DNA of 64,000 bases from an uncultured Thermotogae bacterium (GTDB taxonomy: Bacteria > Bipolaricaulota > Bipolaricaulia > UBA7950 > UBA9294). A program made the translations under genes and the position numbers. Shown here piece after piece: positions 14,765 through 59,803 of this stretch (position 1 is its first letter; each line of letters starts with the position of its first letter). The stretch covers positions 2,227 through 66,226 of the forward strand of contig CAZKFV010000121.1 of assembly GCA_964552295.1 (NCBI GenBank). The letters run 5' to 3'. The notes beneath the pieces are model-generated. The model was not told where the DNA came from, searched no databases, and saw only the letters and a list, made by a program, of their open reading frames with translations.

Positions 14765-14826
14765 TCTTTTCCTCCTTATCGTTAACGGCGTCCTAGATTA
14801 TAAGATCCAATCCTTCTTCTGTCATC

Positions 14827-27113: not shown

Positions 27114-27114
27114 T

Positions 27115-30001: not shown

Positions 30002-30275
30002 GCCTCTCACCTTCTTGTATGTTGTCGCGTTCACTCCAAATCGCAAAATCAGGACAGAGAAGCTGACAGTAAGCGCAGTTTACGCATTTTTCTGGGTAGA
30101 GCATTTCGGGATAATGATAACCCTTCTCATTGAACTCCTCTGATTGTCCCAGTACTTGCATTGGACAGAAATTGATACACAACTCACATCCCTTGCACAA
30201 GTTATCAACAATTGTTATGGTACCTTTCGCCGTCTTCCATCGCTTGCCGGTATTCACCGCATTAGCTTCCTTCAT
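29994..30275 (-). CDS. 2-oxoacid:ferredoxin oxidoreductase delta subunit (2x[4Fe-4S] ferredoxin)
   Basis: The 93-aa product has CKGCELCINFCP and CVNCAYCQLLCP motifs and sits immediately upstream of korA. Confidence 0.72.
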   Translation of the reverse strand: MKEANAVNTGKRWKTAKGTITIVDNLCKGCELCINFCPMQVLGQSEEFNEKGYHYPEMLYPEKCVNCAYCQLLCPDFAIWSERDNIQEGERHE

Positions 30276-32651: not shown

Positions 32652-32652
32652 C

Positions 32653-35263: not shown

Positions 35264-36143
35264 CGTTAACCCTCCCTTTCAAAACAGAGGAAGCAGCCGA
35301 ATACTTGTACGCTGTACCGACGATATCGAGCACGGAATCCAGCACCTTACGTCCCTTTGCCTCTTTACCTTCCCCCGAGAAGGAAACTAAGGAGGCAAGA
35401 GCATGCAGGATTGCTGCTCCCTGATCTCGCACTCCGGCAACTGATCCTGAGCAGCCGGTACACGGACGGTTGGACTTTAGGCATACAGCGCCACATCCAC
35501 CTCTGGTGACAGGGCCGAGGCAGATATACCCCTGATCTATAAGACAAATCTCTGGATCGGGTGGAGAAGCATGGTATCGCTTGATCTCGGTAAGAGGGTT
35601 ATGAATATGTCGACGGTCGCACTCCGCGCATACCGCCTTTTCATTGGCAAAAACAGTCCCTTGGTCTGGTGCTTGGTCTGAAAGCAAAAGCTCTTCGATC
35701 ATCCTTTCAATCATTGTCTGCGGTGGTGGACAGCCAGCAATGATGTAATCAACGTCGATAACCGCAGGCAGCGGCTGGACAAATTCTCCATTAGCTTCTG
35801 CGCGCCCCCTCAATTGTGCCCCAGGGGCTACGTTCGCTAGTCCACAAAGCCCTCCAAGATGAGCACATGCCCCATAAGCTACAACTCGTCTTGCCTTACA
35901 GCGCAGAAGCTTGGCCACAGCTACAGCCTCTTGTCCGTGGACAGGGCCAACGTACATAAGAATGTCGATGTCTCGATCACCGTATTTGTCTATATCATCC
36001 ACAGTAAGATCGCCCTCTTCAGTGGCCCAGAAGAGGAGCTCTGCTGAGTTGAGCATCTTTTTCAGGCTCGGGCTTAGCAAAAGCGACTGACTGCACCCGC
36101 CACATCCACTTGCAGCGTAGATTGCCAAGTTCTTTTTAGGCAT
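35253..36143 (-). CDS. [NiFe]-hydrogenase small-subunit-like Fe-S protein (MvhG-like)
   Basis: Has the Cys clusters GCGGCSQS, GACAHLGGLC, CAECDRRH and CLGPVTRGGCGAVCLKSNRPCTGCSG, and sits between mvhD and the mvhA-like gene. Confidence 0.65.
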   Translation of the reverse strand: MPKKNLAIYAASGCGGCSQSLLLSPSLKKMLNSAELLFWATEEGDLTVDDIDKYGDRDIDILMYVGPVHGQEAVAVAKLLRCKARRVVAYGACAHLGGLCGLANVAPGAQLRGRAEANGEFVQPLPAVIDVDYIIAGCPPPQTMIERMIEELLLSDQAPDQGTVFANEKAVCAECDRRHIHNPLTEIKRYHASPPDPEICLIDQGYICLGPVTRGGCGAVCLKSNRPCTGCSGSVAGVRDQGAAILHALASLVSFSGEGKEAKGRKVLDSVLDIVGTAYKYSAASSVLKGRVNDGE

Positions 36144-36561
36144 TTGACATCACCGGACTCGGCCCTAATGCACGGATATCTTCGGTAAAAGTCTCTACAG
36201 CCCGCTGGAAGATCAGGCCTTGCGCCCCTGCGATCCCCACCTCGCGGATTCTCTCAGGGTTAAACCCGAACTCCTTAAGGGCTCTTTTCATCAGGTAAAT
36301 TCGGTTTGACTCTTTGAGGTTTCCGCCCTCATAGCGACAATGGCCCGGACGGCACCCACCAATTAGAATCCCGTCCGCTCCCTTTTCAAAAGCTGATAGA
36401 ATCATGTCCGAACTTACTTCACCCGTACAATTGACCCGGATGATCGAGACATTGGATGCGTAAGGCATTCGACTGACGCCGCAAAGATCAGCAGCAGCAT
36501 AGGTTGTCCACTTACATAAGAAAGCGATTATCTTTGGCTGAAATTCAGTATTCTGACTCAT
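36136..36561 (-). CDS. Methyl-viologen-reducing hydrogenase delta subunit (MvhD/FlpD family)
   Basis: The N-terminus KIIAFLCKWTTYAAADLCG...VSIIRVNCTGEVS matches the MvhD signature (KIVAFxCNWCSYAGADLAG...IRVMCSG) with some substituted Cys. Confidence 0.75.
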   Translation of the reverse strand: MSQNTEFQPKIIAFLCKWTTYAAADLCGVSRMPYASNVSIIRVNCTGEVSSDMILSAFEKGADGILIGGCRPGHCRYEGGNLKESNRIYLMKRALKEFGFNPERIREVGIAGAQGLIFQRAVETFTEDIRALGPSPVMSNA

Positions 36562-38513
36562 ATTCCACTTCCCAGAGCGGCTGCGATCATGCTCTCTATC
36601 TGCTCTTGCCGCTCATTCCTAACCTCGATCGCTCCCGCTGGACATGACGCGGCACAGATACCGCATCCTGAGCAGAGGATTTCATTTACTACCGCAATGC
36701 CGGACCGCTCAACCTTAACCGCGTCGTAAGGGCAAACGAACTCACATATTCCACACCCCGAGCAGAGAGCTTCTTTGACTGAGGCTACCTCGGGAGAGTG
36801 GCTAAGTTTATCAGCTGCCAGGATAGCAATGGCTTTCGATGCTGCCGCACTTCCTTGAGCGACCGAATCAGGAATATCCTTTGGCCCTTGTACGGTTCCC
36901 GCGATGAATACCCCAGCTGTGGTTGTATCTACCGGCCGCAGCTTCGGATGGGCTTCCTTGAGAAAACCATTCTCATCCACGTTGATATGGAACGTCTTGG
37001 CTAACTCGGATGTTCCCTCGCTAGGAACTATCGCCATTGCCAACACAACTAAGTCCACATCCAGCTCAACCTGTCTACCGCTTAAGGTATCCGCCCCCCA
37101 GACAGTAAGGTGATCTCGTTCATTCACTATCTTGGCAACCTTTCCCCGAATGTAGCTAATACGTTGTCCAGAGATAATACCTTGAGCGAATTCCTCGTAG
37201 CCCTTCCCGTCCGTGCGAACATCTATGTAAAAGACACTTGCCTGGCCATCAGGCACGGCCTTTTTGAAGAGTAGCGCGTGCTTTACAGTGTAAGTACAGC
37301 AAATTCTTGAGCAATAAGGCTTGTGCCTTCCTGGATCACGCGATCCCGCGCAGTGGACAAACGCGATTCTCTTTACCGGTCGTCCGTCGGACGGCCTTTT
37401 CAACTGCCCCTTCATTGGCCCAGATGGATGCACCATTCGCTCAAACTGAAGAGAGGTGACAACATCCGCGTACTTCCCTCCGCCATACTCAGTGAGGTGG
37501 CTTGGATCGTACAGGTCGTAGCCCGTGGCAACAATTATAGCAGCTACCTTTTCCGTAATGATCTCAGGCGCCATATCATAGTCAATAGCCCCTACGTCGC
37601 ATACTTCCTGACACAATCCACAACGAATAGGTTTTACTCCCAGGCACACGTCTTCATCCAGCACATATGAAGAAGGAATGGCCTGCTCAAAAGGCAAATA
37701 AATAGCCTTACGTTCAGACAAAGCCTCGTTGAACTCCTCTTTAGTGCTAACCGGACATACTTCTGCGCACTTATTACACAAATTGCACTTGTCTGCATCA
37801 ACATAGGTTGGTCTCTTACGAATTGTCACCTCGTAGTTTCCAGTGTAGCCAGCAACCTTAATCACCTCGCTATAGGTAAGAAGCCTAATGTTAGGATGTC
37901 GAGAAGCTTCAACCATACGAGGGGTGAGTATGCATTGGGCGCAGTCAAGGGTCGGAAAGGTAACAGACAGCTGCGCCATATGCCCCCCGATGCTCGGATC
38001 CTTTTCCACTAGAATAACTTGGTGCCCGCTGTTAGCTACGTCTATGGCTGCTTGAATCCCGGCGATCCCTCCACCCACCACAAGGCACTTCGTTTCATGA
38101 TCTACAGCGATGGGAAAGAGGTCAATGTCACCGCGCACTTTTTCCACCGCAGCACGCGTTATACGGATTGCTTTCTCGGTTGCTATCTCCCGATCCGAGT
38201 GCACCCAGCTCACCTGCTCACGGATATTGGCTACCTCAAGGCGGTAACGGTTTAGTCCAGCTTCTTCAGCCGCGTTTCGGAAAGTCTCTTGGTGCATTGA
38301 TGGAGTGCATGAAGCAACCACAACTCCATCCAACTTGTGCTCTACGATCGCGGTGCGGATCTTCTCTTGTCCGATCTCAGAGCACATGTAATCGTAATCT
38401 TCAGAATGTACAACCCCGGGATACTCGCCTACTGCTTCTGCTACCCGGCGTGTATCCACCGTCTCCTCGATATTCATCCCGCAATGACACACAAAAACAC
38501 CTATTCGGCTCAT
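36558..38513 (-). CDS. Heterodisulfide reductase subunit A (FAD and Fe-S, bifurcating flavoprotein family)
   Basis: Has the HdrA N-terminal 4Fe-4S motif VFVCHCGMNI, the FAD motif LVVGGGIAGIQAA and inserted and C-terminal ferredoxin domains (CNLCNKCAEVCP, CGLCQEVC, CSGCGICEFVCP, CSGCGICAASCP). Confidence 0.88.
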   Translation of the reverse strand: MSRIGVFVCHCGMNIEETVDTRRVAEAVGEYPGVVHSEDYDYMCSEIGQEKIRTAIVEHKLDGVVVASCTPSMHQETFRNAAEEAGLNRYRLEVANIREQVSWVHSDREIATEKAIRITRAAVEKVRGDIDLFPIAVDHETKCLVVGGGIAGIQAAIDVANSGHQVILVEKDPSIGGHMAQLSVTFPTLDCAQCILTPRMVEASRHPNIRLLTYSEVIKVAGYTGNYEVTIRKRPTYVDADKCNLCNKCAEVCPVSTKEEFNEALSERKAIYLPFEQAIPSSYVLDEDVCLGVKPIRCGLCQEVCDVGAIDYDMAPEIITEKVAAIIVATGYDLYDPSHLTEYGGGKYADVVTSLQFERMVHPSGPMKGQLKRPSDGRPVKRIAFVHCAGSRDPGRHKPYCSRICCTYTVKHALLFKKAVPDGQASVFYIDVRTDGKGYEEFAQGIISGQRISYIRGKVAKIVNERDHLTVWGADTLSGRQVELDVDLVVLAMAIVPSEGTSELAKTFHINVDENGFLKEAHPKLRPVDTTTAGVFIAGTVQGPKDIPDSVAQGSAAASKAIAILAADKLSHSPEVASVKEALCSGCGICEFVCPYDAVKVERSGIAVVNEILCSGCGICAASCPAGAIEVRNERQEQIESMIAAALGSGI

Positions 38514-39052
38514 GATTTCAGCTTCCTCCCATAGTCATAGCCCTCTTCGAACGCCTCTTTGTTCAGTTCGCAGAAGCGGGGAGGAACGGAAGCCTGAACT
38601 GAATCCAGCATTGCATCCTTGCTCACCATACCGGTGATAGCCACTATTGCTCCTAACATGACAACGTTGGCCACAACCCTGTTTCCTAAGCCCTCCGCCA
38701 ACTTCGTTGCCGGAACCTTATATAGGTGCACATCATCGTGAATCTCCCCCAGAGAAACCAAGTCCTCATCAACAATGAGGGTTCCTCCCTTGGCGATGGT
38801 TGAGCCAAAAGTGGTATACGCCTCTTGGGACATGATCACTAGTATATTGGGGGTTGTTACATTAGGATAAGAGATCCGATCTTGTGAGATGACAACATTG
38901 GCGCTGCATGCGCCTCCGCGCGCTTCAGGACCATAAGATTGTGTAAGAACAGCATTTAGATTGTCGTGGACTGTGGCAGCCCGCCCAGAAATCTTGGCGG
39001 CCGATATGATTCCTTGGCCGCCAAAGCCAGCAAACCGAACTTCTGTTCGCAT
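38510..39052 (-). CDS. 2-oxoacid:ferredoxin oxidoreductase gamma subunit (KorC-like)
   Basis: The 180-aa product contains the gamma-subunit motif GFGGQGIISAAKISG...QSYGPEARGG. It is separated from korDAB by the hdr/mvh/frd genes. Confidence 0.8.
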   Translation of the reverse strand: MRTEVRFAGFGGQGIISAAKISGRAATVHDNLNAVLTQSYGPEARGGACSANVVISQDRISYPNVTTPNILVIMSQEAYTTFGSTIAKGGTLIVDEDLVSLGEIHDDVHLYKVPATKLAEGLGNRVVANVVMLGAIVAITGMVSKDAMLDSVQASVPPRFCELNKEAFEEGYDYGRKLKS

Positions 39053-39125
39053 CGATTCGCTCCTTCTTAGTTGGTTGCAGGTTATTTGCGCTTGTGCTGA
39101 TGATCACAAATCCCGGCGCGCGGAC

Positions 39126-39154
39126 TATATAACCCTTTTCTCCTCGTATGTCAA
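39126..39154 (-). promoter_or_regulatory. Sigma70-like promoter (TTGACA-N17-TATATA) in the sucD-korC intergenic region, with its -35 box inside a CTCCTC/GAGGAG hairpin
   Basis: On the minus strand the sequence reads CTCCTCTTGACATACGAGGAGAAAAGGGTTATATAGTCC. The -35 and -10 boxes are 17 nt apart, and an inverted repeat CTCCTC-N9-GAGGAG overlaps the -35. Confidence 0.35.
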
Positions 39155-39164
39155 GAGGAGAAAC

Positions 39165-40031
39165 TCATATAATGTCATTTATTGCATGCCCTATCTTGGC
39201 GGGACTCTCCACTACAGTGACACCTGCTTGAGTAAGGGCAGTGATCTTTGCAGCGGCTGTCCCGCTTCCACCGGTCACTATCGCTCCCGCGTGTCCCATC
39301 CGCCTTCCTGGAGGTGCAGTACGCCCAGCAATAAAAGCTACAACAGGTTTACTGACATGTTCGGATATGTAATGAGCAGCTTCCTCCTCCGCACTACCTC
39401 CTATTTCTCCAATCAATACCATCGCCTCTGTTTGTGAATCAGCTTCAAACATCTCTAACAAATCGATAAACGAAAGACCGACTATGGGGTCTCCTCCCAT
39501 TCCTACACATGTTGACTGTCCTATTCCTCGCTGCGATAGCTGGTTTACCGCCTCATAGGTCAAAGTACCACTACGCGACATAACCCCCACACTTCCTTGC
39601 CGATGGATGTACCCTGCCATTAGGCCCAATTTCGCTTTACCTGGAGATATAATACCAGGTGTATTAGGCCCGATAAGCTTAGTGTGGTGAATGTCCAGGT
39701 ACCTACGGACATGTACCATGTCATTCACTGGAATCCCCTCAGTTAGGCATATGACAAGCTCGAGGCCTGCTTCCGCTGCTTCCAAGATGGCATCAGCGGC
39801 AAACCTAGGAGGAACAAAGATCATGGACACATTCGGATTGCAATTCTCAACCGCCTCGCTAACCGTATTGAATACTGGTACACCATGAACAGCCTGTCCC
39901 GCCTTGCCAGGGGTAACGCCGGCCACAACATTAGTGCCGTAAGCAATCATCTGTTCTGTATGAAAGCTACCTTCCCTTCCAGTAATCCCCTGAATCAGCG
40001 CTCGCGTATTCTCATCAACTAAGATGCTCAT
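39165..40031 (-). CDS. sucD: Succinyl-CoA synthetase alpha subunit
   Basis: The N-terminus is [27 protein letters not shown]; the product also carries the CoA-binding and phosphohistidine loop. Confidence 0.92.
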
Positions 40032-41196
40032 TCTTTTCCCCTCCTAGCGCTTGAGCAACTAGTGTCGCTGCCTCGTCTAAGTCACTAGCCCGCAGAAATT
40101 CAAGTCCTGATTGAGCAAGGATGTCTCTTCCTTCCTCAACGTTTGTACCCTCCAATCGCACAATCACCGGAACCTGAACCTGCAGTCTCTTGACCGCAGC
40201 TACAATGCCACGCGCCAGAATGTCGCAGCGCAGTATTCCACCGAATATGTTGATGAACACCGCTCGCACATCCGGGTCAGAAAGCAAGAGCGAAAAACCC
40301 TTCTCGATCATTTCCTCGTTCGCGCTTCCCCCAACATCTAAAAAGTTCGCAGGAGTTGCTCCAGCAAGCTTGATTAGGTCCATGGTGGCCATAGCTAAGC
40401 CTGCTCCATTGACCAAGCAACCAACATTGCCATCAAGCTTAATGTAATTCAAGTGGTTCTTCTTTGCTTGCGATTCAAGTGGGTTTTCCTCGTTTGGGTC
40501 TTGTAGCTTTTCAATCTCCGGGTGGCGAAAGATCCCGTTATCATCGAAGTTAATCTTCGCGTCTAGTGCGATGACGTCATCCTCAAAATCGACCACTAAC
40601 GGGTTGATCTCCACTAACATACAATCCTTATCCAAGAACAAGCGGTAAAGGTTGTTTATTATCTTTGCTACTTGTGATGTGGCCTGCGTGCTCAGTCCTA
40701 ATTTTACCGCCAGCCGGTAGCACTGAAACGCACGTAAACCAATCTCAGGCCAAACCCATTCCTTGAAAATCCTGTCCGGGAAATCTTTGGCTATCTGCTC
40801 GATTTCCATTCCCCCAGCAGGGCTAGCCATGATTACGGGGAGTCTTCGGTAACGGTCAATCGTAATCCCTAAGTAGATCTCCGTCTTGACCTTGGTTGCT
40901 TCCTCAATGAGGACCCGATGCACCACACGCCCTTCAGGGCCAGTTTGGTGTGTAACTAGCGGATAATTAAGGATCTTCTCTGCAAAATGCCCTGCTTCTT
41001 GGGCGGAGTCAACTATCTTCACCCCTCCCGCCTTCCCTCTTCCCCCCGCGTAGATCTGAGCTTTCACTACGACTGGACCAGAGAAAGCAGAGGCCACTTT
41101 GCTTGCCTCACTTGGCGTGGAAACCACATTTCCAGCCGGCACGGGGATGGAGAAGGAAGAGAACAGCTCTTTAGCTTGATACTCGTGAACCTTCAT
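40015..41196 (-). CDS. sucC: Succinyl-CoA synthetase beta subunit (ATP-grasp)
   Basis: The N-terminus is [12 protein letters not shown]...[18 protein letters not shown]. The start has a GGAGG RBS. Confidence 0.92.
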
Positions 41197-47647: not shown

Positions 47648-47971
47648 CTAAACTTGTATACCCACTGTCTCTTCGTGCACGGCCAAGTCTTGCGCGTACT
47701 CGATTGCCAGCTGCTTAAGACCAATGACCAGCGTCTCCATAATCGCATCGATCTCCCTGTTCAGGTGCGGGGCGCTGCGATCAACTGATAGGGTCATTAC
47801 CTTTCCAGCAGAGTACCCAGGAGCAAGATGCAGATAGCCTGTCATTGAGGCAACACTTGCCTCAATAAACCGCAAAGCGGCCACGCCGGGACCACTACTA
47901 CAATCTATCCCTTGCCCGTTCAGCCCAAGAATACGATTATGCTCATCTCGTGAAACAACTATCTCTCCCAC
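47648..47971 (-). CDS. Prp-like (DUF464) protein in the rplU-rpmA position; a possibly degenerate ribosomal-processing cysteine protease
   Basis: A 107-aa ORF in the conserved slot between L21 and L27. It retains a Cys (GIDCSSGPG) but has no obvious catalytic His in the GHAG position. Confidence 0.45.
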   Translation of the reverse strand: MGEIVVSRDEHNRILGLNGQGIDCSSGPGVAALRFIEASVASMTGYLHLAPGYSAGKVMTLSVDRSAPHLNREIDAIMETLVIGLKQLAIEYAQDLAVHEETVGIQV

Positions 47972-50301: not shown

Positions 50302-50778
50302 ACCTTCTCCAGTTCTATAACAATGATGTATTATACCTTGAAGCGAACCTGCCTTCTATCGAAGGACAAGCACCGCATGGTTTGGTGTCACGTTTCTCTG
50401 ACAACAATGCGCTACTACAGAGAGTAAACGCTTCACGAACAGCTATACGGATAGGTTCGATCTTGGAAGAGCATCGCCGTTACTATTCAAGGGAAAGCTT
50501 CAGGCACTAACTGCAGAACTATAGACCAGCTTTCTCCTAGCTTCATTCGACGCCCAATAGTTTCTATCCATCAGCATGTTTGCTTTTCGCAAACAACTTC
50601 CCTCTATCGTTAACTACAAGATGGTAACCGCTTTTATTAGCGCTGTGGTACGCTATAAATATCCTACTTCATAATCCTTGGCAGGCAAGCTTGTGCCTCT
50701 TTTCAAATGACCTTCCTTGCAAACCCAATTTCAGTAAGTGCCATCTTACCTGATCAAGCACTGCCCAGGTTAGTTGAT

Positions 50779-53700
50779 CTAGAATCTGGCTGCAATGAAA
50801 AGCTCTAATAGTAAGCTATTATAGAGCTCACCATCGCTCTTGGTCCCGGTCAGGTAGGATCCAGTGAGGGAAGTTTGCCATGTTTCAGAGATTGTTAGAT
50901 CAGCGCTCGTCTCCACCGATAAGCTGATATCGCGTTTCTCTTCTCCCGACGAGTAGCTTCCATCAACGTAAACACGAACCCCGAGTGGTTTGTAAAGGAA
51001 CCCTTCTCGAAATGGGTCCGTAGTGAAAGTATAGGTGTTATTAAGAGTGATGGTGAGATCATTAGTTTGGCTTGATCCAGATGAGCTACGTGCGCTAAGC
51101 CTTAAAGTATCCCTACTGCCGTCTGGTGGGGTCCAAGACAACGATCCAGTCAAAGTCATTGTTGTCGTCCCTCGCGACTCACCCCGATAGGTAACCAGAC
51201 TGGAGTTCTGTGAGTACGACAGGTTTGGCTTAAAGTCCGGTATTCCCGTGTAGGCTAAACTGGCCGAGATCCGATCCTTTATCTGCTCTCTATCTTGGCC
51301 GTACCCTGATACATCACGGGCAACCGATCCGTTTGCCGAGACATCGCTTACCGTCGCTTGTAAGCTAGCCTGGCCACCAAGCACAATCATCCCACCCTCC
51401 TTGTTAGCGTCAAGCGTTAGTCGTGGCGTCAGCCTGAAATCAGAGATCGAGAACGAAAAGACCCTGACGTCAAGGTCTGCTGTCTGAGCGATATCTATGT
51501 TATCGTCTGCAAGATTATGCGCGCCATCAACTTTGTACGCAAAGTCAGCACTAAAGCCCGTAAAGGAGTGTTTCACGCTTCCAGTAACACTCCATTTTTC
51601 ACTTCCACTTGCTCCAGTTAGACCAAAGCTCATCGGCCGGGCCCAGTTTCCCCTAATCCTAACCTCCGGCGTAATACTCCAGTCAACGCTTCCCGAGAGT
51701 CGGTTCTGACGAGGAGTGGAACTCCCCTCATTTCCACCATAGAAGGAGTCCGTCCACCCAAGCGATAGTGACAAGGAGTCCGATAATAATCTGTCCGATA
51801 AAGACAGCGCATAGCCAATCGTACTTCTTTCAAAACCGGGCACAAGAAAGTCATCGTTTACAAGGCTCTGGCTAATAGAAATGTCAGCATGGACACCAAG
51901 GTCAATAGAGAGCGAAGCCCTGTTCTCAAGTGTGTTTCGGGGATCTTCTGTTCTATAATCTATCTCGTAGAAGCTATGTGAGATAACTAGGTCTACTCCA
52001 TCCGAAACGTTGAAACTGCCATTCAATATCCATCCGGTCGAGTCACTGCGTGATGTCCTGCCAATGCTAGTGAATGTTGGTTGTAGAAGCTCGAAGCTTC
52101 CGGACAGTTTATAGCTATCCACGCTTCGATTGAAGCTAGCCCTAACCAAGACCCCCGTATCAGTGTGATCCAAAGCAGGTATATCTTTAAACCTGAAATT
52201 GTCATGGCCATCCAGATGCAGATCATAATTGTCAAATCGCTTTGAAGTACGGTCCTTGATAACCAATACTTCCATGTAGTAATCAGAATCAGCCCGGCAA
52301 CCCGCCCACAACGCACCATCAGGAGCCCTCCCGATTGCGGTTATAGCCATACCTTCTGTTTTCGATATGATGGTATCGCCATTGTACAGACCATCATTCG
52401 TCCCATAGTATATGTCATCGTTGTTCAAACAGACCGCATAGACCGGCCCATTTTCGAAGATCCAGCTTATGGCCCCCTTGTTTCCTCTCATTAGGCCAAG
52501 GCCATTGCTCGAGGCAATATATATGTTGCCATTGCTAGCAAGAAGGGCGTTAACCTTTTCGCCTACCGTTTCGGATACATGTTCGAACCTGCCGTTGTCA
52601 AAGTCTAGCGTGAACAGTCCGCTATCTGTACCAACATATAGCTCATCTTCACTCATAGCCAGGGCGTAAACCGTCGAAAACGCATCCGAGTTGTAGTTAC
52701 GATAACTAGCGAAATCATCCAGTGATTCCGTGGGTACCACAGCTATACCACCTTCCGTTCCAAGATACAGAATACCGTCACTAACTAACAAGGAATGAAC
52801 CGCCACGTCTGGCAACCCGTCGTCAGTATAGTATCGCTTCCAGTTTCCTACTTGATCGAATGGTGCCTCGCCAACTAGCTTGAGCTGGCTGAGGCCCGAT
52901 GAGGTTCCAAAATATATATTCTCTCCATCACGTGCCATCGTGTAGACTCGACTGCCCGACAAGCCGCTTGCCGCGCCGTACGCCGTCCATTCATCACCGA
53001 GGCCAACGCTTAATCCATTGAGGCTTGCAACAATTGTGTAGTCGCCTGCAACGACGATTGAACTAATTTGGTTTGGCATGCTCAAGCGTAGGTTGTCGTC
53101 GAACGGAAAGACATCGTTGTTGTACCCTACCGTAAAGCCAGCGCTAAAGCCATCCAAGTCAATAGTCCCAGCCACGCCGGAAACCGTATGAGTATTTGGC
53201 ATGGTGTGCATGGTTTCTCTGTCTTCACTCGAAGTAACGGAATCCGCTGCTTGCAACATGCTCAGATCGAGTGTTAGAGCTGGCGAGACGGGAAGAGTTA
53301 GCATCGCCCCGTAGAAATTTCTCGCGTATTCCGCGCTTGAACCTAGCCCCCCGCGTGACCGTTCGTAGTCGATCCGAATCGTATCCTTGTCTCCTATCTT
53401 GGAAAAAAGCACTAGAAGGCCAACATCATAGTCTATTGAATAGTCTTTATCACGAACAATAAGTTCCCCATTTAAGTATACCTTTTCGCTTGCAGGAACA
53501 ACCGATAACCCAAGATTGAATACATCTCCCGATATGCTATAATCGAAAGATACTAGAACTGCGCTATCTGGGTTTTCAAAGAAATCCGAAGGGAAGTCAA
53601 ACTCAATAATCCCCTCACCCTCATATGTATTCACTGAATAGCCAGCAAACAACGGCTCAGAAATATCTAAGAATGTCTCGCTATCTTGACTGATCTGTAC

Positions 53701-54759
53701 GGAAATCGAGTCTTCCATGATATTGGTCTTACCTAAGTAGTAAAAACGATGCCTAACAGCATCAGCAACAACATAGGAATCCCCATCAACCATCAAGCTC
53801 ACATGCTCTGCAAGCGAATACAGGAACCTCAATTCGTATTCGCTTCCGGTGTTAAATGGATACGTTTTGTACTCATCGCTATCAAACAAGTCATGTTCCC
53901 TGTTGTAAGTACTAATGGCTGAGGTAAGGTGCCTACGTAAAAGGGCATTTGGTTCTGACTTCAATATGAGATTATCGATATCCGATTCATCTGTCACTAC
54001 GCTATAACTGCTCGCGGAAACATCCACGGTAGGTGAGGTAGCAATGTCATCATACAGGTACCCCAGGCCATAATCAGCTAGCAGGCCTTTCAAGGCGTCT
54101 GTTGTGACAAATTCCAGGTTTACTTCGGAGAAATCAACAATGTAGGGCGCCGTTAACGGGTAAGCGTAAAGACCCGAAATATTCGTCTGATACGGCTTCG
54201 TAATCCACGGGGTATCAGGATATGAGGCAGCATATAAGACTTCGTCATGACCTGTTCTTCCCGTGAAGGTCTGTGACTCGGATATCCCCTCGATCTGTGA
54301 TACTATGCCAGTCAGGGTAGTTTCATCCCGCAGGTAGTCAAGGCGTAACCCCTTAAGCTTCTTGTTGTACACAGCAAACGCTTGCTGCCCCGATAAAGAA
54401 AAATCACCCAGTACACCCTTAAGATTATCTGTATCGAGGTTTATCGTCAGTGTTTGCATGCTAGAAGATTCTTGATCATTGAAGTGCGCGTTGATAGTCA
54501 ACACAGACAACGCTTCACCCTTGATATCCACAGCAAGCGACTGATCAAGCGAAAGCTGATATGCGCTTGCTCCCAACCTCGCTAATCCGCTGGCATCTCC
54601 AATCCCATAGCCCACCGTCCATGTCTTGCTTCCGGTGAGAGTAAGCTGATAGTTTTCCCCTTGTTCAGTCCTAGGAAAAGACTCCAGAGAGATCAGAAAG
54701 CCCAGTATGAACACAAAGAAGAAGAGTATAACATTTGTATTTGGTCTTAGGCGCTCCAT
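50779..54759 (-). CDS. Large (about 1326 aa) outer-membrane protein with a signal peptide, a two-component-regulator-propeller-like (Reg_prop/Y_Y_Y) beta-propeller and a C-terminal ~500-aa beta-barrel ending in Phe
   Basis: Starts MERLRPNTNVILFFFVFILGFLISLESF, a signal peptide, with a GGAGG RBS upstream. It has repeated GxxxGLxxxDG...Y/W propeller blades (IYFGTSSGLSQL, ILYLGTEGGIAVV, LYVGTDSGLFTL, IYIASSNGLGLM, IYYGTNDGLYNG). The C-terminal half is an alternating amphipathic S/T/G-rich segment that ends ...LLLELFIAARF. The ORF-track start at 54834 includes 25 aa before the signal peptide. Confidence 0.6.
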   Translation of the reverse strand: MERLRPNTNVILFFFVFILGFLISLESFPRTEQGENYQLTLTGSKTWTVGYGIGDASGLARLGASAYQLSLDQSLAVDIKGEALSVLTINAHFNDQESSSMQTLTINLDTDNLKGVLGDFSLSGQQAFAVYNKKLKGLRLDYLRDETTLTGIVSQIEGISESQTFTGRTGHDEVLYAASYPDTPWITKPYQTNISGLYAYPLTAPYIVDFSEVNLEFVTTDALKGLLADYGLGYLYDDIATSPTVDVSASSYSVVTDESDIDNLILKSEPNALLRRHLTSAISTYNREHDLFDSDEYKTYPFNTGSEYELRFLYSLAEHVSLMVDGDSYVVADAVRHRFYYLGKTNIMEDSISVQISQDSETFLDISEPLFAGYSVNTYEGEGIIEFDFPSDFFENPDSAVLVSFDYSISGDVFNLGLSVVPASEKVYLNGELIVRDKDYSIDYDVGLLVLFSKIGDKDTIRIDYERSRGGLGSSAEYARNFYGAMLTLPVSPALTLDLSMLQAADSVTSSEDRETMHTMPNTHTVSGVAGTIDLDGFSAGFTVGYNNDVFPFDDNLRLSMPNQISSIVVAGDYTIVASLNGLSVGLGDEWTAYGAASGLSGSRVYTMARDGENIYFGTSSGLSQLKLVGEAPFDQVGNWKRYYTDDGLPDVAVHSLLVSDGILYLGTEGGIAVVPTESLDDFASYRNYNSDAFSTVYALAMSEDELYVGTDSGLFTLDFDNGRFEHVSETVGEKVNALLASNGNIYIASSNGLGLMRGNKGAISWIFENGPVYAVCLNNDDIYYGTNDGLYNGDTIISKTEGMAITAIGRAPDGALWAGCRADSDYYMEVLVIKDRTSKRFDNYDLHLDGHDNFRFKDIPALDHTDTGVLVRASFNRSVDSYKLSGSFELLQPTFTSIGRTSRSDSTGWILNGSFNVSDGVDLVISHSFYEIDYRTEDPRNTLENRASLSIDLGVHADISISQSLVNDDFLVPGFERSTIGYALSLSDRLLSDSLSLSLGWTDSFYGGNEGSSTPRQNRLSGSVDWSITPEVRIRGNWARPMSFGLTGASGSEKWSVTGSVKHSFTGFSADFAYKVDGAHNLADDNIDIAQTADLDVRVFSFSISDFRLTPRLTLDANKEGGMIVLGGQASLQATVSDVSANGSVARDVSGYGQDREQIKDRISASLAYTGIPDFKPNLSYSQNSSLVTYRGESRGTTTMTLTGSLSWTPPDGSRDTLRLSARSSSGSSQTNDLTITLNNTYTFTTDPFREGFLYKPLGVRVYVDGSYSSGEEKRDISLSVETSADLTISETWQTSLTGSYLTGTKSDGELYNSLLLELFIAARF

Positions 54760-54767
54760 CTTTCCTC

Positions 54768-55610
54768 CTAGAAGCAAAAACTGATAGAAATCCGATGAGC
54801 GTTTGGAAACGATCCTCTTGTTATGTATGCCCAATCTGTCTGAAAACTGGAGAAACGCACTGACAGACCGAATGTCGCTCCAGCACCATCATAACCAACG
54901 CGCGCCGCTAATCCATCGACGTATACCTCTACGCCGGCGCGAAGCTTTGGAGAGGCAGAGAACAATCCCGCCCCTTCTACGCTAGCGTTTAATCCAACAT
55001 CTTCTCCAGGAGATGCACTAAGAGAAACCCCCAAGCGTGTTCTTGCAGTCCAGTCTTCAGTATGGGTATCAAAAGATATCGGCCGGCTGTAAGCATTCTC
55101 CACAAGCATACCCACTCTTATTACGTCAGTTACTATAAGAAGCGATGGGTCTAATGCCCACCCTGAACCGTCATCAGGGGAGGTGGCTCGGTAAACTTTG
55201 AGCCTTCCTCCAAACCCGACAGGGCCGATGCGAAATCCAGTAGAGACTATTCCTCCTCCACTTGAATAACGCAGCGTTTGCTCCTGCGTGTCTATCACTC
55301 CAGAATCCAGGTATAGAAAGGCCGCCCCAAAATATGGAAGAGCAAATTGAAGACAGCCGTAGTTGACAGCTCCAAACTGCCGCGCAAGAAGAGAAGAGAG
55401 TCTTATGCTGTTGATCCATCCAAGGCCAGCAGGATTGTAAAACACGGCGCTTTCGTCGTCTGCAATGGCTAAAAACGCCCCGCCCATACCCGTCGCACGG
55501 GCGGATGTCGAGAGTTCAAAGATCCCAGCAACGTCTGCATAACTATCGCCAAATGCTACCCATGAACAAATCGCTGTCAAGAGCAAGATCATAACCAATG
55601 CTACTCTCAC
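54768..55610 (-). CDS. Short FadL/OmpP1/PorV-like outer membrane beta-barrel protein
   Basis: Has a signal peptide and an N-terminal region ATGMGGAFLAIADDESAVFYNPAGL that resembles the FadL/TodX/PorV hatch-region signature (G.G.A...D.SA...NPA.L). The GTG start overlaps the upstream S8 protease stop (GTGA). Confidence 0.5.
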   Translation of the reverse strand: MRVALVMILLLTAICSWVAFGDSYADVAGIFELSTSARATGMGGAFLAIADDESAVFYNPAGLGWINSIRLSSLLARQFGAVNYGCLQFALPYFGAAFLYLDSGVIDTQEQTLRYSSGGGIVSTGFRIGPVGFGGRLKVYRATSPDDGSGWALDPSLLIVTDVIRVGMLVENAYSRPISFDTHTEDWTARTRLGVSLSASPGEDVGLNASVEGAGLFSASPKLRAGVEVYVDGLAARVGYDGAGATFGLSVRFSSFQTDWAYITRGSFPNAHRISISFCF

Positions 55611-57775
55611 CTAGAAATCACCAGCCTTCCCACAGCGGAGTTTCCCTTGTCGGTTCCAAGTACATATAGGTAAAGGCCGTTTGCCAGTGCTCGTCCGACT
55701 TCATCTATCAGATCCCAGCTGTATGTTGTATCATATACCGACAACTCTGCATCAAGCACCTTTGTTCCTGCGACTGTGATGACCTGCAAACATGCTTGAG
55801 TTGTATCATCAGGCAAAGAGTAAAGAAAAACTGCCTGATTGCTTACCGGGTTCTCTGCTAGCTCAACAACCGGCAGGTCGTCGACAGAAGGGATTATTTG
55901 GCCTGCCACTATTTCAACCGCATCACTAGCGTTCACCTTGCCGTATCCCCAGCTGTTGTTGGCCATACTCCCTGTAAACGCATCTCGGGTAGCAGTAGTG
56001 GTAAGAGCAAGTCTAATCTCATCTGATGTCAATTCCGGATTCTCAGAGAGCATCAGGGCAATCACTCCAGCCACGTGAGGAGCCGCCATGCTTGTCCCCA
56101 GGTTCATAACGTGCGTACCGTCCGGATTTAAAAGATACAGAGCATAACCTGCATCAGACGATTGCGCAGAACAAATCCAAGCGCCAGGAGCTACTATATC
56201 AGGCTTCTGCCTGCCATCCCGCGTTGGACCAAGGCTAGAGAAGTACGATAATCTGCCGATCTGAGTGCTGGATGAGAAATCTTGCTCGCCAGCCACAGAC
56301 ATCCACTTAGCCTTGGTATTGAACGATCCCACAGTGATTACAGTATTTGCATTTCCTGGCTCATCAATCGTGAGAAGCGAATCGCCACCGATGATTGATC
56401 CATTGTTCGAGGTTACCCAGCCATCAAACCTGCCTCCACCACTATCATCCCTTACAGTGATTGCCCAAGGCTCTCGGCTAGTTATCTCGCTTAAAGCTAC
56501 TCTGGCTTCGTTATCTTGGTTATTGGGGTTAGGTCCAGTGAATGCATTATCCACTACAATAATCCCATCGCGACTTGCATCACGTCCTATTGTTCCAGTA
56601 GCGACTGCCAAGGAATCGCCCATCGGTGGAGTAATCACTATCTTGAAATTTGATGTTCCGGGATACCAAATCGATATCTCTACAGAGTCCGACTCGGGGT
56701 CAACCAAGAAAGTAAATTCATTTCCTGCAAGCGATCGTGCCACATGCAAAGGTAGATCCCCTTCGTTACCGGCAGATACCACTATCGCCCTTCCTGGGCG
56801 ATCGATAAGCTCATCTAATCCCTGCTCAAAAAGACTTGTCCCATCGTGCGGCCCGTCCTGACCACCAAGGCTTAAGTTCACTACCGCAGGCAACCCTATC
56901 TCCTCAGCCTTATCAAATATGTACCGTACACCCGAAAGGATATCAGAGGTATAAAACGCGGTCTTTACTACAACTATCTTTGCTTGTGGGGCAACGCCTA
57001 TCATCGCCGCGCTCGACGATGATCCATCTCCAGCAGCTGCCGCAATTACGTGCGTACCGTGACCGCTACTGTCTGACTGACGAACGATCCCACTTTCTCC
57101 CCCAAAGCCATTCGCAATATCGCTTTCTACATCAGAACGATCGTAATAGTCACTAAACAGGCCGCTTGTCTGGTCCCAGATCCAAAGAATGCGCGATGAC
57201 TCCTCCAGGCCATCTCCATCGGAATCATAGCGAAAATCAAGGTGCATATAGTCTATACCAGTATCTACAGCACCAATGATCACACCTTCCCCCATATCTG
57301 ATATTGGGGGAGCATGCACAACATCGGCTTTTATGATTGGAACGCTTACATCCAGTTTAGGCTGCGTCTTCCAAGCTGGCTCCACATACACCACATCTGG
57401 CGAAGCAATAAGCGTTAAAAGGGAAGCAAGCGAAACCTTCATACCTAGAATTGTCCCCGTCGATACCGCAACAGGAAACCCTAGGAAACTTGACCCAAAA
57501 AACGGATAGCGCACTTTGACCAAAACACCAAGCTCCTCACCCTTTTCGCCGTCAGATTCGATTGGAAAAACTATCGGGCCGTTGGGCCCAAATACTTGCA
57601 TCGACGAGGAGTAACGTGATAAATCTTTCTCCTCACTGCTTTCAGCCAGTACCATCCGCAATACTGGGGAGAGCTTAGCCTCCTGTCCACAGAATGACAG
57701 AAGGCTGAACAAGAAGATCACAAGCACAGCAATAACAAGTTTTCGCACGTCACATCTCCCTACCTTCAAGCACAT
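55607..57775 (-). CDS. Secreted subtilisin-like serine protease (S8) with a C-terminal T9SS-type (Por_Secre_tail-like) sorting domain
   Basis: Has an N-terminal signal peptide and the S8 catalytic triad regions (GAVDTGID..., HGTHVIAAAAG, GTSMAAPHVAGV). The last ~75 aa (YSLPDDTTQACLQVITVAGTKVLDAELSVYDTTYSWDLIDEVGRALANGLYLYVLGTDKGNSAVGRLVISR) follow the T9SS CTD beta-sandwich pattern. Confidence 0.8.
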   Translation of the reverse strand: MCLKVGRCDVRKLVIAVLVIFLFSLLSFCGQEAKLSPVLRMVLAESSEEKDLSRYSSSMQVFGPNGPIVFPIESDGEKGEELGVLVKVRYPFFGSSFLGFPVAVSTGTILGMKVSLASLLTLIASPDVVYVEPAWKTQPKLDVSVPIIKADVVHAPPISDMGEGVIIGAVDTGIDYMHLDFRYDSDGDGLEESSRILWIWDQTSGLFSDYYDRSDVESDIANGFGGESGIVRQSDSSGHGTHVIAAAAGDGSSSSAAMIGVAPQAKIVVVKTAFYTSDILSGVRYIFDKAEEIGLPAVVNLSLGGQDGPHDGTSLFEQGLDELIDRPGRAIVVSAGNEGDLPLHVARSLAGNEFTFLVDPESDSVEISIWYPGTSNFKIVITPPMGDSLAVATGTIGRDASRDGIIVVDNAFTGPNPNNQDNEARVALSEITSREPWAITVRDDSGGGRFDGWVTSNNGSIIGGDSLLTIDEPGNANTVITVGSFNTKAKWMSVAGEQDFSSSTQIGRLSYFSSLGPTRDGRQKPDIVAPGAWICSAQSSDAGYALYLLNPDGTHVMNLGTSMAAPHVAGVIALMLSENPELTSDEIRLALTTTATRDAFTGSMANNSWGYGKVNASDAVEIVAGQIIPSVDDLPVVELAENPVSNQAVFLYSLPDDTTQACLQVITVAGTKVLDAELSVYDTTYSWDLIDEVGRALANGLYLYVLGTDKGNSAVGRLVISR

Positions 57776-57943: not shown

Positions 57944-57972
57944 TTGATTTCACAGAACATAAGTGTTACAAT
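57944..57972 (+). promoter_or_regulatory. Sigma70-like promoter (TTGATT-N17-TACAAT) for the lamin-tail-domain protein gene
   Basis: The sequence GGGTATTGATTTCACAGAACATAAGTGTTACAATGAG lies about 60 nt upstream of the ATG at 58034. Confidence 0.35.
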
Positions 57973-58033
57973 GAGCATATCGTTCAGGAGGGAAGCCTCT
58001 AAGAACAACTCAAGAGTGTCAAAGGAGGAAGAG

Positions 58034-58927
58034 ATGGTTAGAAACCTGTTGTTAGGCGCTTTTATCATCATTTGTGTGGGTGTAGTTATCCACGCACAAG
58101 AATTAACAATCAGCGAAGTGGCTTGGGCCGGAACGGCCAGCAGCACCAGTGATGAGTGGATAGAGATCCATAATCCCAAAGATGTACCCGTAGATGTAAC
58201 CGGATGGCTTATCACTTTCGGGGACACGGCAATCGATCTCGGAAAGGCCGCAAACACAGTTATAGAAGCCGGAGCATATTTCCTACTTGAAAGGACGGAC
58301 GACGAAACAGTTTCCGATATCACAGCCGATTTGATCTATACCGGCAGCCTAAGAAATGATACATGCACCATAAGCCTCCTAGATCATAATGGTGCGGTTA
58401 TAGATACCGCTAACGCCACTCTCGAATCCGGTTGGGCTGCAGGATCTACAGGAAAATCAGATGTACCTTTCGCTACTATGGAGCGGATTGATCTAGCCGG
58501 TCCGGATACTGTTGACAATTGGGCTTCTAACAGCGGCCTAATAACATGCGGGCATGATGCATCCGGCGAAGCGATCAACGGTACACCAAGAGCTAAAAAC
58601 TCAGCAACAATTCTATGGGAGACTGTTCCTGTTGTGACCATAGACGCCTTTTGGCAAGACGAGCAGAACGTGAGCGACACCGTAGTCATCTCATGGCAAT
58701 CACACGACCCGGACGGCAAGGATGAAATGCTTCAGGTAGATATCTTAATCTCCGATGATGGTGGAGATACTTTTGCAGTACTAGTTAGCGATCTTGGCGG
58801 TGATTCCTACGTTTGGGATACAACAAAGCACAAAAACGGCGGTGAGTACATAATTAAGGTGGCTACGAAGGACGTTGATGGTAACGTTGGGGAGGAAGCG
58901 AGCCCTGAATTTTCTATAGCAAACTAG
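58034..58927 (+). CDS. Secreted lamin-tail-domain (LTD) protein with a C-terminal Ig/FN3-like domain
   Basis: Starts MVRNLLLGAFIIICVGVVIHAQE, a signal peptide, with an AAGGAGGAAGAG RBS. The LTD signature is ISEVAWAGTASSTSDEWIEIHNPKDVPVDVTGWLI...GAYFLL. The ORF track starts earlier, at 57944. Confidence 0.7.
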   Translation: MVRNLLLGAFIIICVGVVIHAQELTISEVAWAGTASSTSDEWIEIHNPKDVPVDVTGWLITFGDTAIDLGKAANTVIEAGAYFLLERTDDETVSDITADLIYTGSLRNDTCTISLLDHNGAVIDTANATLESGWAAGSTGKSDVPFATMERIDLAGPDTVDNWASNSGLITCGHDASGEAINGTPRAKNSATILWETVPVVTIDAFWQDEQNVSDTVVISWQSHDPDGKDEMLQVDILISDDGGDTFAVLVSDLGGDSYVWDTTKHKNGGEYIIKVATKDVDGNVGEEASPEFSIAN

Positions 58928-58936: not shown

Positions 58937-59803
58937 CTACTGGGAGAGCCCGCACATCTTCTTGATCTGGTCCATGTGCGCGTAGGTCTCTCTCTTTCCA
59001 GCATCGATGGCCTCTTCCACGTGCTTGAAAGCCAGCATATTTATCCAGCCGACTTCCGGGCGCAGCACGATGAAGTGGCCATCGAGCCGTCTACTGGCGT
59101 TCTCCATCTGAAGGGCAGTCAGGGCATGTGATGTTATCCTCTGAGCTTGAAGAAGTGCGTCAAGCGTGGTCTTGACGTTTCGTGTAAGAGGAGCCCCCGT
59201 ATCAACAGCGATAACAGCCTCAGCCCCCATGTCGATTGTCACGCTTGCTGGAACCTTGTCAATGACTCCACCATCGATCAGGTAACGTTCCTCATAGGTG
59301 ACAGGATAGAACGTTCCCGGAATCGCCGCGCTGGCGGCGATCGCCTTGTACAGCTTACCCTCGGTAAGCACAATTCGCTCTCCTGTCTCTAGATCTGCCG
59401 CCACTACTGCAAATGGCATCCGCGTATCCGAGAAATCTCTGTTTGCTGTCAACAGCGAGAACAACTCGTAGATACGTGACAGATCCTGAGGAAAACCCTC
59501 ATTTGTGCGCCAGTCTGAACCGCGTACATACTCAATGAACCCTCGCCCAATTGCCTTCTGTAATTCACGCATTGCACTCTCCGAAACTTGAAGAAGCTCG
59601 TTCAGATCAAGGCAGGTAAGTAGAACGCGCAACCTGGAAAGATCCATTTCAAGCGCTCTGGCAGCTCCCATGACGGCGCCTATACTTGTCCCGCTTATGT
59701 AATCCAAGGGAATGTTATTCTCAGTCAGTGCCATAAGAACACCGAGGTGAGCAAAGCCACGCGCACCGCCGCCGCCAAGAGCTAATCCGATCTTTCTTCT
59801 CAT
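58937..59803 (-). CDS. Patatin-like phospholipase
   Basis: Has the oxyanion motif GGGGARG, the nucleophile elbow GTSIG (GxSxG) and the DGG(V) catalytic Asp motif (IDGGVIDKVP). Confidence 0.85.
   Translation of the reverse strand: MRRKIGLALGGGGARGFAHLGVLMALTENNIPLDYISGTSIGAVMGAARALEMDLSRLRVLLTCLDLNELLQVSESAMRELQKAIGRGFIEYVRGSDWRTNEGFPQDLSRIYELFSLLTANRDFSDTRMPFAVVAADLETGERIVLTEGKLYKAIAASAAIPGTFYPVTYEERYLIDGGVIDKVPASVTIDMGAEAVIAVDTGAPLTRNVKTTLDALLQAQRITSHALTALQMENASRRLDGHFIVLRPEVGWINMLAFKHVEEAIDAGKRETYAHMDQIKKMCGLSQ

Follow-up and report, generated by a model that had tools for sequence, protein, structure and literature searches.

A three-gene locus of Bipolaricaulota encodes homologues of the type IX secretion translocon core and probably forms a compact export and surface-display module

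The T9SS (type IX secretion system) is currently viewed as a motor-driven machine of about 20 proteins that is confined to Bacteroidota and their relatives. Here, we analyzed a locus in a 64-kb stretch of DNA (64,000 nucleotides of contig CAZKFV010000121.1, hereafter the window) from an uncultured member of the phylum Bipolaricaulota (Acetothermia/OP1). In its list of open reading frames (ORFs), three co-directional minus-strand genes (the trio) encode an S8 protease, a 280-aa barrel protein and a 1326-aa protein, referred to below as the giant. The protease gene (55607..57775, minus strand), recognized by its ORF and by PF00082, specifies a 722-aa secreted subtilase with a C-terminal sorting domain and is the predicted cargo. 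The small barrel gene (54768..55610, minus strand) has a GTG start and codes for a PorV/PorQ-type (FadL-like) protein that is predicted to carry or anchor the sorting domain. The giant gene (50779..54759, minus strand) encodes a SprA/Sov-like protein, the predicted translocon; the mechanical ORF list lengthens it to a TTG (50779..54834), and the ATG at 54759 gives 1326 aa. A preliminary description of this DNA had reported three minus-strand genes, the first two overlapping in GTGA and the last two 8 nt apart, and both the coordinates and the junction sequences agree with it. As read from the sequence, GTGA at 55607..55610 (minus strand) contains both the TGA that stops the protease gene (55609-55607) and the GTG at which the barrel gene starts (55610-55608), and the Shine-Dalgarno-like spacer GAGGAAAG occupies 54760..54767 (minus strand), from the barrel stop TAG to the giant ATG. 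A scan for promoter and terminator consensus sequences gave nothing above shuffled background, so the word operon is used here on account of the overlap, the spacing and the conserved gene order. All three proteins have a hydrophobic, signal-like N-terminal segment, and both barrel proteins are closed by a conserved terminal Phe, which is nearly invariant in the giant family. Such a residue is usual for substrates of BAM (the machinery for beta-barrel assembly).

The protease belongs to Peptidase_S8 (PF00082, E 2e-43, 149 bits) and its catalytic set is intact (D171/H239/N337/S562, that is, Asp-His-Ser in subtilase order and the oxyanion Asn). A signal-peptide-like segment spans aa 1-33 (57677..57775, minus strand; boundary approximate) and contains the hydrophobic stretch LVIAVLVIFLFS, with a 12-aa hydropathy of 3.3; as a sequence feature, it implies Sec export to the periplasm. 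That the protease might be a lipoprotein was considered and rejected, as the Cys of LSFC is not conserved in orthologues. At the other end, the C-terminal domain (CTD; aa 632-722, 55610..55882, minus strand) is T9SS type-A/FlgD-Ig-like and, from its motif and from the orthologue tails, a predicted sorting signal. Its pattern, NPV..A.F.Y.LP....A.L.VY...G.LV......W.L....G..LASGLYLYV..TD.G.S.VGRLVI.R, is kept in the last ~91 aa of the orthologues, which head the trio at other loci, and the window tail is 27-65% identical to 28 tails of related loci. When the 29 homologous tails were compared with Pfam at E<=0.01, FlgD_ig (PF13860) was matched by 25, CHU_C (PF13585) by 13 and Por_Secre_tail (PF18962) by 10, and the cargo tail of locus L046 reached 37.9 bits with Por_Secre_tail (cutoff 27). 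The window tail had no Pfam match at that threshold and weakly matched the tail of the PorU model (E 0.034). Its assignment to the FlgD_ig/Por_Secre_tail family is made from sequence through the orthologues. The earlier reading of the tail as a T9SS CTD thus stands for the orthologue tails (25/29 with FlgD_ig) and the conserved pattern, whereas the window copy stays below thresholds (15.3 vs 23 bits). In addition, a basic residue near the tail C-terminus is retained (G[RK]LVI.R); it recalls a lysine on which the function of type A CTDs depends (PMC10994853), which is a resemblance and not a test. Within the window and ~250 kb of Bipolaricaulota DNA, CTDs were found only in the trio's cargo and in extra giant-adjacent cargos, an amount of DNA too small for per-genome counts. 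A large-database search with the CTD profile yielded only 21 short fragments, from which the number of other CTD cargos in the phylum is not inferable.

The small barrel matched the PorV/PorQ model NF033709 with an E-value of 2.9e-15, aligning residues 30-279 with positions 6-325 of 326. Among 38 members of the small-barrel family, NF033709 was matched by all 38, PorVQ2 by 36, PorQ by 27 and PorV by 13, and no other family appeared. The sequence profile of the small barrel matched a single PDB chain, PorV of F. johnsoniae. Its AlphaFold2 (AF2) model (predicted local distance difference test, pLDDT, 89) has ~14-15 strand elements and an N-terminal plug segment of short helices at 29-65, and the best two PDB folds in Foldseek were again PorV (8gl6_F, E 3.4e-12, query TM-score (TMq) 0.77; 6h3i_F, E 1.1e-10). 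FadL and OmpG folds ranked behind at ~1e-7, and the Pfam FadL family (PF03349) gave 12.4 bits (E 0.054), below its cutoff of 29.7. On the basis of these family-model, PDB-profile and fold matches, we regard the protein as a short PorV-type barrel and not a generic FadL, an assignment from sequence and modelling. It is ~100 aa shorter than PorV, and its loops are therefore shorter. A BAM subunit like the FadL-like BamG of Bacteroidota (PMC12611786) was considered as an alternative identity and rejected, as the matches to 9n2d_B and 9hiv_F were far weaker than those to PorV. Homologues of the small barrel form ~110 clusters at 90% identity, nearly all of them unnamed or 'hypothetical'.

Pfam detected only a mid-protein Reg_prop propeller in the giant, plus a borderline PorZ_N_b_propeller match (27.9 bits vs cutoff 27), and a PDB sequence-profile search with the giant family recovered Reg_prop propellers only, without SprA. 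Since that search missed SprA, the link to SprA comes from the fold search and from bridging sequences. The AF2 model of the giant covers aa 31-1230, so that the final strands and the barrel closure lie outside it; it is almost entirely beta (pLDDT 86.4, predicted TM-score 0.69). According to DSSP, ~9 strands are followed by an alpha/beta insert, ~5 strands, the propeller and 20 long strands (aa 866-1229). The overall estimate is 34-40 strands, of the same order as the 36 of F. johnsoniae SprA (PMC10994853); for ~6 of them the only basis is the amino-acid sequence of the unmodelled 96 C-terminal residues. The first three PDB ranks in Foldseek were all SprA (8gl8_A, 2e-19; 8gl6_A, 2.6e-19; 6h3i_A, 3e-16), and lower ranks were taken by propellers (8e-12), LptD (3e-8) and Deinococcus SlpA (2e-7). 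Given the two-fold size difference, low TM-scores with SprA (0.37 and 0.22) were to be expected.

The bridging sequences came from two sources. A scan of GTDB species genomes with conserved giant peptides detected large ORFs in Bipolaricaulota and also in WOR-3, Gemmatimonadales, Elusimicrobia and others. The giant-family profile scored 61-63 bits on the WOR-3 and Gemmatimonadales ORFs, which themselves exceed the TIGR04189 (SprA) cutoff of 200 with 477 and 484 bits, and 73-100 bits on Elusimicrobia SprA-like ORFs (positions ~35-500), which are sub-threshold for TIGR04189 (132-177 bits). When giants were aligned with bona fide and Elusimicrobia-type SprA by hhalign, giant residues 35-527 corresponded to columns 172-668 of the SprA alignment (Prob 99.7%, E 1.2e-25, 444 columns), and TIGR04189 was matched by 11/11 giants tested (best E 1.3e-8). 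The second source was an exhaustive phmmer search of giant aa 31-560 against 1.84 billion representatives, which returned 250 clusters in size tiers of 1260-1490, 1545-1730 and 1700-2160 aa. It connected the giant segment to 1900-2160-aa proteins at E ~1e-7. In those proteins SprA is the top NCBIfam match (E 1e-42 to 1e-52; E<=0.001), and for P0377 and P0378 the sole one; among five tested proteins of the two larger tiers, SprA led in 5/5 and was the sole match in 4/5 (E<=0.001). Judged by the Foldseek, hhalign, TIGR04189 and phmmer evidence, that is, by sequence comparison and modelling, the giant is homologous to SprA/Sov, compact and divergent, and carries a propeller in addition.

Three parts can be distinguished in the giant. 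The SprA-homologous N-terminal region defined by hhalign (aa 35-527; 53179..54657, minus strand) comprises the first strands and the alpha/beta insert, carries the motif VYLNG..L.RD.DY.IDY..G and is the best conserved part of the family. Outside the SprA-aligned region lies the Reg_prop-type beta-propeller insert (~aa 559-860; 52180..53085, minus strand). The C-terminal long strands assigned by DSSP (aa 866-1326; 50782..52164, minus strand), poorly conserved in sequence, would make up most of the barrel wall and end in ...ELFIAARF. Like those of the small barrel, the homologues of the giant fall into ~110 clusters at 90% identity, nearly all unnamed or 'hypothetical'. It should be noted that models of phage tail-tube and distal-tail proteins weakly matched the insert with DY.IDY..G (giant aa ~390-470, window ~53350-53590) and the corresponding part of SprA-like ORFs: NF052337 matched 5/11 giants as well as a WOR-3 SprA (E 1e-5), and TIGR02217 matched one SprA-like protein. 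These sequence matches may reflect a shared fold.

The distribution of the trio was examined in GTDB species genomes with an 11-sequence giant alignment, which gave 49 loci with a strong giant match, 42 of them with enough upstream sequence to judge. The order CTD protein, barrel, giant was present in 36 of these 42 species-level loci: 29 by an automatic rule, five (L017, L031, L032, L050 and L056) missed by the rule because of overlapping stop-to-stop ORFs, and two (L022 and L030) that run to a contig end. The genes flanking the trio vary between clades, and no further conserved neighbour was found in the 6-10 kb flanks of 58 loci. Some lineages depart from the common arrangement. In L046 and L047, from metagenome-assembled genomes (MAGs) labelled Bacillota, the barrel comes first and the cargo lies between it and the giant; the cargo is a 1527-aa fervidolysin-like S8 protein or a 1031-aa M6 (InhA-like) peptidase. 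Three Bipolaricaulaceae genomes (L030, L050 and L056) have a second PorV-like barrel just after the giant on the opposite, convergent strand, accompanied by a 970-1040-aa PKD-repeat protein that bears a FlgD_ig-type tail; the second barrel is 29-33% identical to the first (BLAST; aligned pairs from L050 and L030). The tail, one PorV-like barrel per cargo and one SprA-like pore are constant, and the passenger domain varies. This is what a cargo-carrier-translocon system predicts, and it argues against the protease as a fixed machine part. This behaviour of the module across genomes is the strongest functional evidence.

These results support the cargo-shuttle-platform reading of the preliminary description. 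The trio indeed co-occurs in related genomes (36/42 assessable loci), and its middle gene, taken there for a FadL/PorV-like barrel, is favoured as PorV over a generic FadL by structure prediction and Foldseek (3e-12 vs ~1e-7) and by NF033709 (38/38). The composition, which had been called non-canonical, with the giant as 'platform', was not borne out; another T9SS component is present, the giant being a divergent SprA/Sov homologue, and the set is nearer to the canonical one, SprA, PorV and cargo.

Several other observations were made at these and further loci. Giants without an adjacent protease or barrel occur in L005, L041, L043, L045, L053, L054 and L058 (L053 and L058 labelled Firmicutes). 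Several of them directly follow priA, where other clades carry the full trio, and one MAG has two giants (L042 and L045). It may be that cargos whose genes lie elsewhere use this pore. At L008 (15004-16819) and L009 (10193-11984), the trio loci that diverge most, the genes directly after the trio are those of a MacB_PCD/FtsX permease and an ABC ATPase; the pair is not adjacent in other clades. It could be a LolCDE/MacB-type system and is conceivably an energy source. Moreover, L059-L089 contain SprA-like ORFs of 1400-2200 aa that share the N-terminal ~450 residues of the giant and carry the labels Elusimicrobia, Endomicrobia, Desantisbacteria, WOR-3, Zixibacteria, Eisenbacteria, Gemmatimonadales, Ignavibacteria and Nitrospira. 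A CTD-bearing ORF lies just upstream of the SprA-like ORF in L063, L067, L068 and L072, and L067 also has a PorV-like ORF. By sequence, T9SS-translocon-like genes seem widespread outside Bacteroidota.

We consider that the trio is probably a compact outer-membrane module for protein export and surface display, built from homologues of the T9SS translocon core. Its parts are homologous to a CTD cargo, PorV and SprA, the genes are tightly coupled, the arrangement is conserved across the phylum, and cargo and barrel are exchanged or duplicated together. By homology with known systems, transport, docking and surface retention would proceed as follows. The S8 protease would be exported by Sec through its N-terminal signal and fold in the periplasm. 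Its beta-sandwich tail would then be recognized, inside the lumen of the giant barrel, by the PorV-like barrel docked at the side of the giant, and the protease would leave the pore tail-first together with its carrier. Still attached to that carrier, it would stay at the surface of the cell (the toga), where it would likely degrade proteins to supply amino acids and peptides. The SprA barrel of F. johnsoniae has 36 strands and a lateral opening, across which PorV docks; within the pore, PorV loops are bound by the CTD, and loading onto SprA-PorV needs no energy (PMC10994853). We lean towards a module that works without the PorLM/PorKN motor and ring.

The proposed end state also takes the cell envelope into account. 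Ca. Bipolaricaulis Ran1, the sole closed genome of the phylum, has BamA, no lipopolysaccharide (LPS) genes and 'only a single extracellular protease', and Bipolaricaulota rely on external amino acids (PMC6092417). Anchoring by anionic LPS (A-LPS) is unlikely because this closed genome has no LPS genes. Neither a PorU-type sortase nor a PorZ gene was found in the window or in the locus flanks. The lack of LPS genes in Ran1 and of a PorU-type sortase in the window and flanks makes permanent carrier binding the likeliest and simplest end state. Strain J31, the first of the phylum in culture, is a diderm whose outer membrane resembles a toga and which also has an S-layer (bioRxiv 10.1101/2025.11.21.689855).

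A further generalization is tentative and, in our view, possible without being the likelier case: Bipolaricaulota, possibly together with Elusimicrobia and other non-FCB (Fibrobacteres-Chlorobi-Bacteroidetes) candidate phyla, might possess a minimal T9SS-type translocon that needs neither motor nor LPS and consists, in a single unit, of a compact SprA-like pore and one dedicated PorV-like carrier per cargo.

Several points weigh against an export module of this kind. All window proteins score below the curated cutoffs: the giant has a faint match to SprA (NCBIfam TIGR04189) at aa 411-467, with 10.5 bits vs cutoff 200 (E 0.057), the small barrel has 56.7 bits with the PorV family model NF033709 (cutoff 90), and the window tail alone has 15.3 bits with the CTD model TIGR04183 (E 0.014; cutoff 23). 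The sequence alignment to SprA is restricted to giant aa 35-527, and the propeller has no counterpart in the SprA-aligned part. The giant is alone in 6/42 assessable loci and, outside that count, in L005; in these loci no cargo or barrel adjoins it, and the giant may therefore work independently of this protease. No PorL/M motor or PorK/N ring was found in the 64-kb window or the locus flanks, a coverage short of whole genomes, and in the canonical T9SS a proton-driven motor pulls PorV and its substrate away from SprA (PMC10994853). In addition, localisation, transport and complex formation are what we infer for the trio.

The alternative that survives best is that the trio is the translocon part of a complete canonical T9SS, with the motor (PorL/M), the ring (PorK/N), the hub (PorW/SprE, PorT), PorU and many CTD cargos encoded elsewhere and the protease an ordinary cargo whose gene adjoins sprA/porV. 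All three parts of the trio are homologous to T9SS parts, and T9SS genes are scattered in Bacteroidota, so that their absence from 64 kb means little. The second cargo beside the giant in some lineages implies a pore that is not strictly single-client, and the six assessable loci and L005 in which the giant lacks an adjacent cargo fit this explanation as well. However, no T9SS gene beyond the trio lies within the window, the flanks of the 58 loci hold no further conserved neighbour, and no other CTD protein was seen in the ~250 kb of Bipolaricaulota DNA. Reviews restrict the T9SS to Bacteroidota or the FCB group (PMC7463736, PMC12398890), we found no published link between the phylum and the T9SS, and Ran1 lacks the LPS genes that A-LPS attachment needs (PMC6092417). 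We therefore regard a complete canonical system as unlikely, though as deserving serious consideration.

Much less probable is an attachment or processing complex, in which the protease would be PorU-like and process other surface proteins on a PorV/PorQ-like barrel, with the propeller of the giant in the part of PorZ. A PorQ/U/V/Z attachment complex is named in published work (PMC12365241, PMC10947112). The small barrel does match PorQ (27/38 members), the propeller reaches the PorZ_N_b_propeller cutoff (27.9 vs 27 bits) with PorZ 5m11 among its fold and sequence matches, and there is a weak match (E 0.034) between the protease tail and the end of the PorU model. In P. gingivalis, moreover, PorU retains its CTD and sits on PorV. 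Yet PorU is a cysteine protease unrelated to S8, and sister lineages place an M6 peptidase or PKD-repeat proteins with the same tail in the protease position, so that the enzyme is an interchangeable cargo and not a fixed machine part. The similarity of the propeller is that of a generic Reg_prop (E 1e-26 to sensor kinases), and the conserved core of the giant is SprA-like, not PorZ-like.

Least probable of all is a nutritional unit, in which the giant would be a structural or porin-type toga protein (akin to Deinococcus SlpA or a large diffusion channel), the small barrel a FadL-type uptake channel and the protease a neighbour that supplies peptides. In its favour, SlpA (2e-7) and LptD (3e-8) are among the fold matches of the giant and FadL/OmpG folds (~1e-7) among those of the small barrel; amino acids from outside are a necessity for the phylum (PMC6092417), the strain in culture possesses both a toga and an S-layer (bioRxiv 10.1101/2025.11.21.689855), and the trio sits amid housekeeping genes. 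Against it, the SprA/PorV matches are 5 to 12 orders of magnitude better and sequence homology bears them out, and Pfam FadL reaches only 12.4 bits. Were the protease a chance neighbour, moreover, its T9SS-type tail would not have persisted in all lineages, and proteins bearing such a tail would not take its place.

With regard to the host of the probable export module, homologues of the giant and the small barrel come, where the source is named, from Candidatus Bipolaricaulota or Acetothermia and not from Bacteroidota/FCB. Contamination by an FCB genome was considered and rejected, as the trio lies amid housekeeping genes (metG, rplU, rpmA, obg and groEL in the window) and recurs in ~50 MAGs labelled Bipolaricaulota or Acetothermia. 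A BamA gene (722 aa, POTRA and Omp85) adjoins an OmpH/Skp-like gene at 14021-16995 (minus strand), from which it follows that the organism makes an outer membrane. The Skp homologue of F. johnsoniae, SkpA, is part of the extended T9SS translocon. Record names in public databases look unreliable for lineage: many MAGs with trio orthologues are titled 'uncultured Thermotogae bacterium' (for example, L011, L014-L017, L020, L022, L023, L028, L032, L034 and L041-L043), and individual MAGs bear the names Neomarinimicrobiota, Atribacteria or Fraserbacteria.

Elsewhere in the window, 3675-12686 and 25165-41196 hold a dcw-type division/wall cluster and an anaerobic central-metabolism block. The former is complete (ftsZ, ftsA, ftsQ, murB, murC, murG, ftsW and murD), and the latter includes 2-oxoacid:ferredoxin oxidoreductase (OFOR), fumarate hydratase and reductase-like proteins, Hdr/Mvh-like (hydrogenase-type) proteins and succinyl-CoA synthetase. 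Between rplU (L21) and rpmA (L27) lies a 107-aa ORF (47648-47971, minus strand) with no Pfam match; L006 and L007 have a 106-109-aa ORF at the same position, which in some phyla is the site of a Prp-type L27 protease, and L27 of the window has no N-terminal extension. The 477 nt from the giant stop to the metG start (50302-50778) contain no convincing ORF and no Rfam match. On the other side of the trio, a 327-aa secreted-looking Lamin Tail Domain protein (57944-58927, plus strand) is encoded divergently from the protease and is followed by a patatin-like phospholipase gene (58937-59803, minus strand). Both products are without a sorting tail, and at other loci neither gene is a conserved neighbour of the trio.

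As for novelty, the parts of the trio all come from known superfamilies and do not amount to a new kind of system. The criteria of a canonical T9SS are missed in the curated cutoffs, in the sizes of both barrels and in the phylum. In the literature, we found no published link between Bipolaricaulota, Acetothermia or Elusimicrobia and SprA, PorV or the T9SS, which is stated to be confined to Bacteroidota or the FCB group (PMC7463736, PMC12398890). These data suggest a stripped-down version of the T9SS in a phylum where the T9SS has not been described. If this is true, the system is reduced to three adjacent genes, for a pore roughly half as large as usual, together with a small carrier and a cargo. 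Under the minimal reading, the trio would be either the ancestral core of the Bacteroidota T9SS or a radically reduced derivative, and the SprA-PorV pair alone could move a folded protein across the outer membrane. A natural minimal system of this kind would show what SprA-PorV is capable of alone and what the motor adds, would inform the origin of the T9SS, and would explain the surface placement of an apparently single extracellular protease in a deep-branching, toga-bearing phylum. The cultured member of the phylum (bioRxiv 10.1101/2025.11.21.689855) makes the prediction testable, and more than 100 protein clusters labelled 'hypothetical' could receive names.

Among known systems, there is a likeness to other very large BAM-assembled beta-barrels, LptD (26 strands) and Deinococcus SlpA (30 strands), which appear as lower-ranked fold matches of the giant. 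Their E-values are ~11-12 orders weaker than those of SprA, with no sequence relationship; the giant also differs from them in that it has neither an SLH or coiled-coil region nor an LptE-type partner. The PorU-PorV-PorQ-PorZ complex of P. gingivalis resembles the trio in combining a surface protease that has a CTD-like tail, a PorV/PorQ-type barrel on which it sits, and a propeller protein in the assembly. However, PorU is a cysteine protease and that complex works with A-LPS, whereas the propeller of the trio is an insert in a SprA-like barrel and the protease is replaceable by other cargos. Sequence is shared with the uncharacterised SprA-like proteins of Elusimicrobia, Desantisbacteria and allied candidate phyla (1400-2200 aa, L060-L089), which have the N-terminal ~450 residues in common with the giant (73-100 bits), are likewise found outside Bacteroidota with sub-threshold TIGR04189 scores (132-177 bits) and in some cases have CTD genes upstream. 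They are longer than the giant and have no Reg_prop match and no fixed protease-barrel-giant trio.

The pairing of each cargo gene with its own small barrel gene recalls type B CTD cargos and their PorP/SprF-like partners in Bacteroidota, in which the PorP/SprF-like barrel is thought to receive and anchor the cargo (PMC9143113; PMC12618676). The lineages with two cargos (L030, L050 and L056) accordingly have two barrels, and the carrier-bound display proposed for the trio protease would resemble that of type B cargos with PorP/SprF-like partners (PMC9143113). In contrast, the barrel of the trio belongs to the PorV/PorQ family, the tail of the cargo is type-A/FlgD_ig-like, although CHU_C was matched by 13/29 tails, and the cargo-barrel pair lies directly beside the translocon gene. 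The closest structural likeness is to the SprA-PorV translocon of F. johnsoniae (6H3I, 8GL6, 8GL8; PMC10994853), which likewise combines a giant barrel, a FadL-like 14-strand carrier and a cargo with a C-terminal beta-sandwich tail. It provides the best structural matches for both barrels of the trio, and sequence homology extends to SprA over giant aa 35-527 and to PorV/PorQ over the whole small barrel. For the trio, no peptidyl-prolyl isomerase (PPI), Plug, SprE, SkpA-type partner or GldLM motor was identified, and all its scores are below the curated equivalog cutoffs. The host belongs to Bipolaricaulota, whose closed genome Ran1 is without LPS genes, and not to Bacteroidota/FCB. The giant has 1326 aa vs ~2300-2400 aa for SprA, and the carrier 280 aa vs ~370-400 aa for PorV; compared with SprA-PorV, the trio has a Reg_prop propeller inserted in its giant and brings its three genes, including that of the cargo, together in one tight unit.

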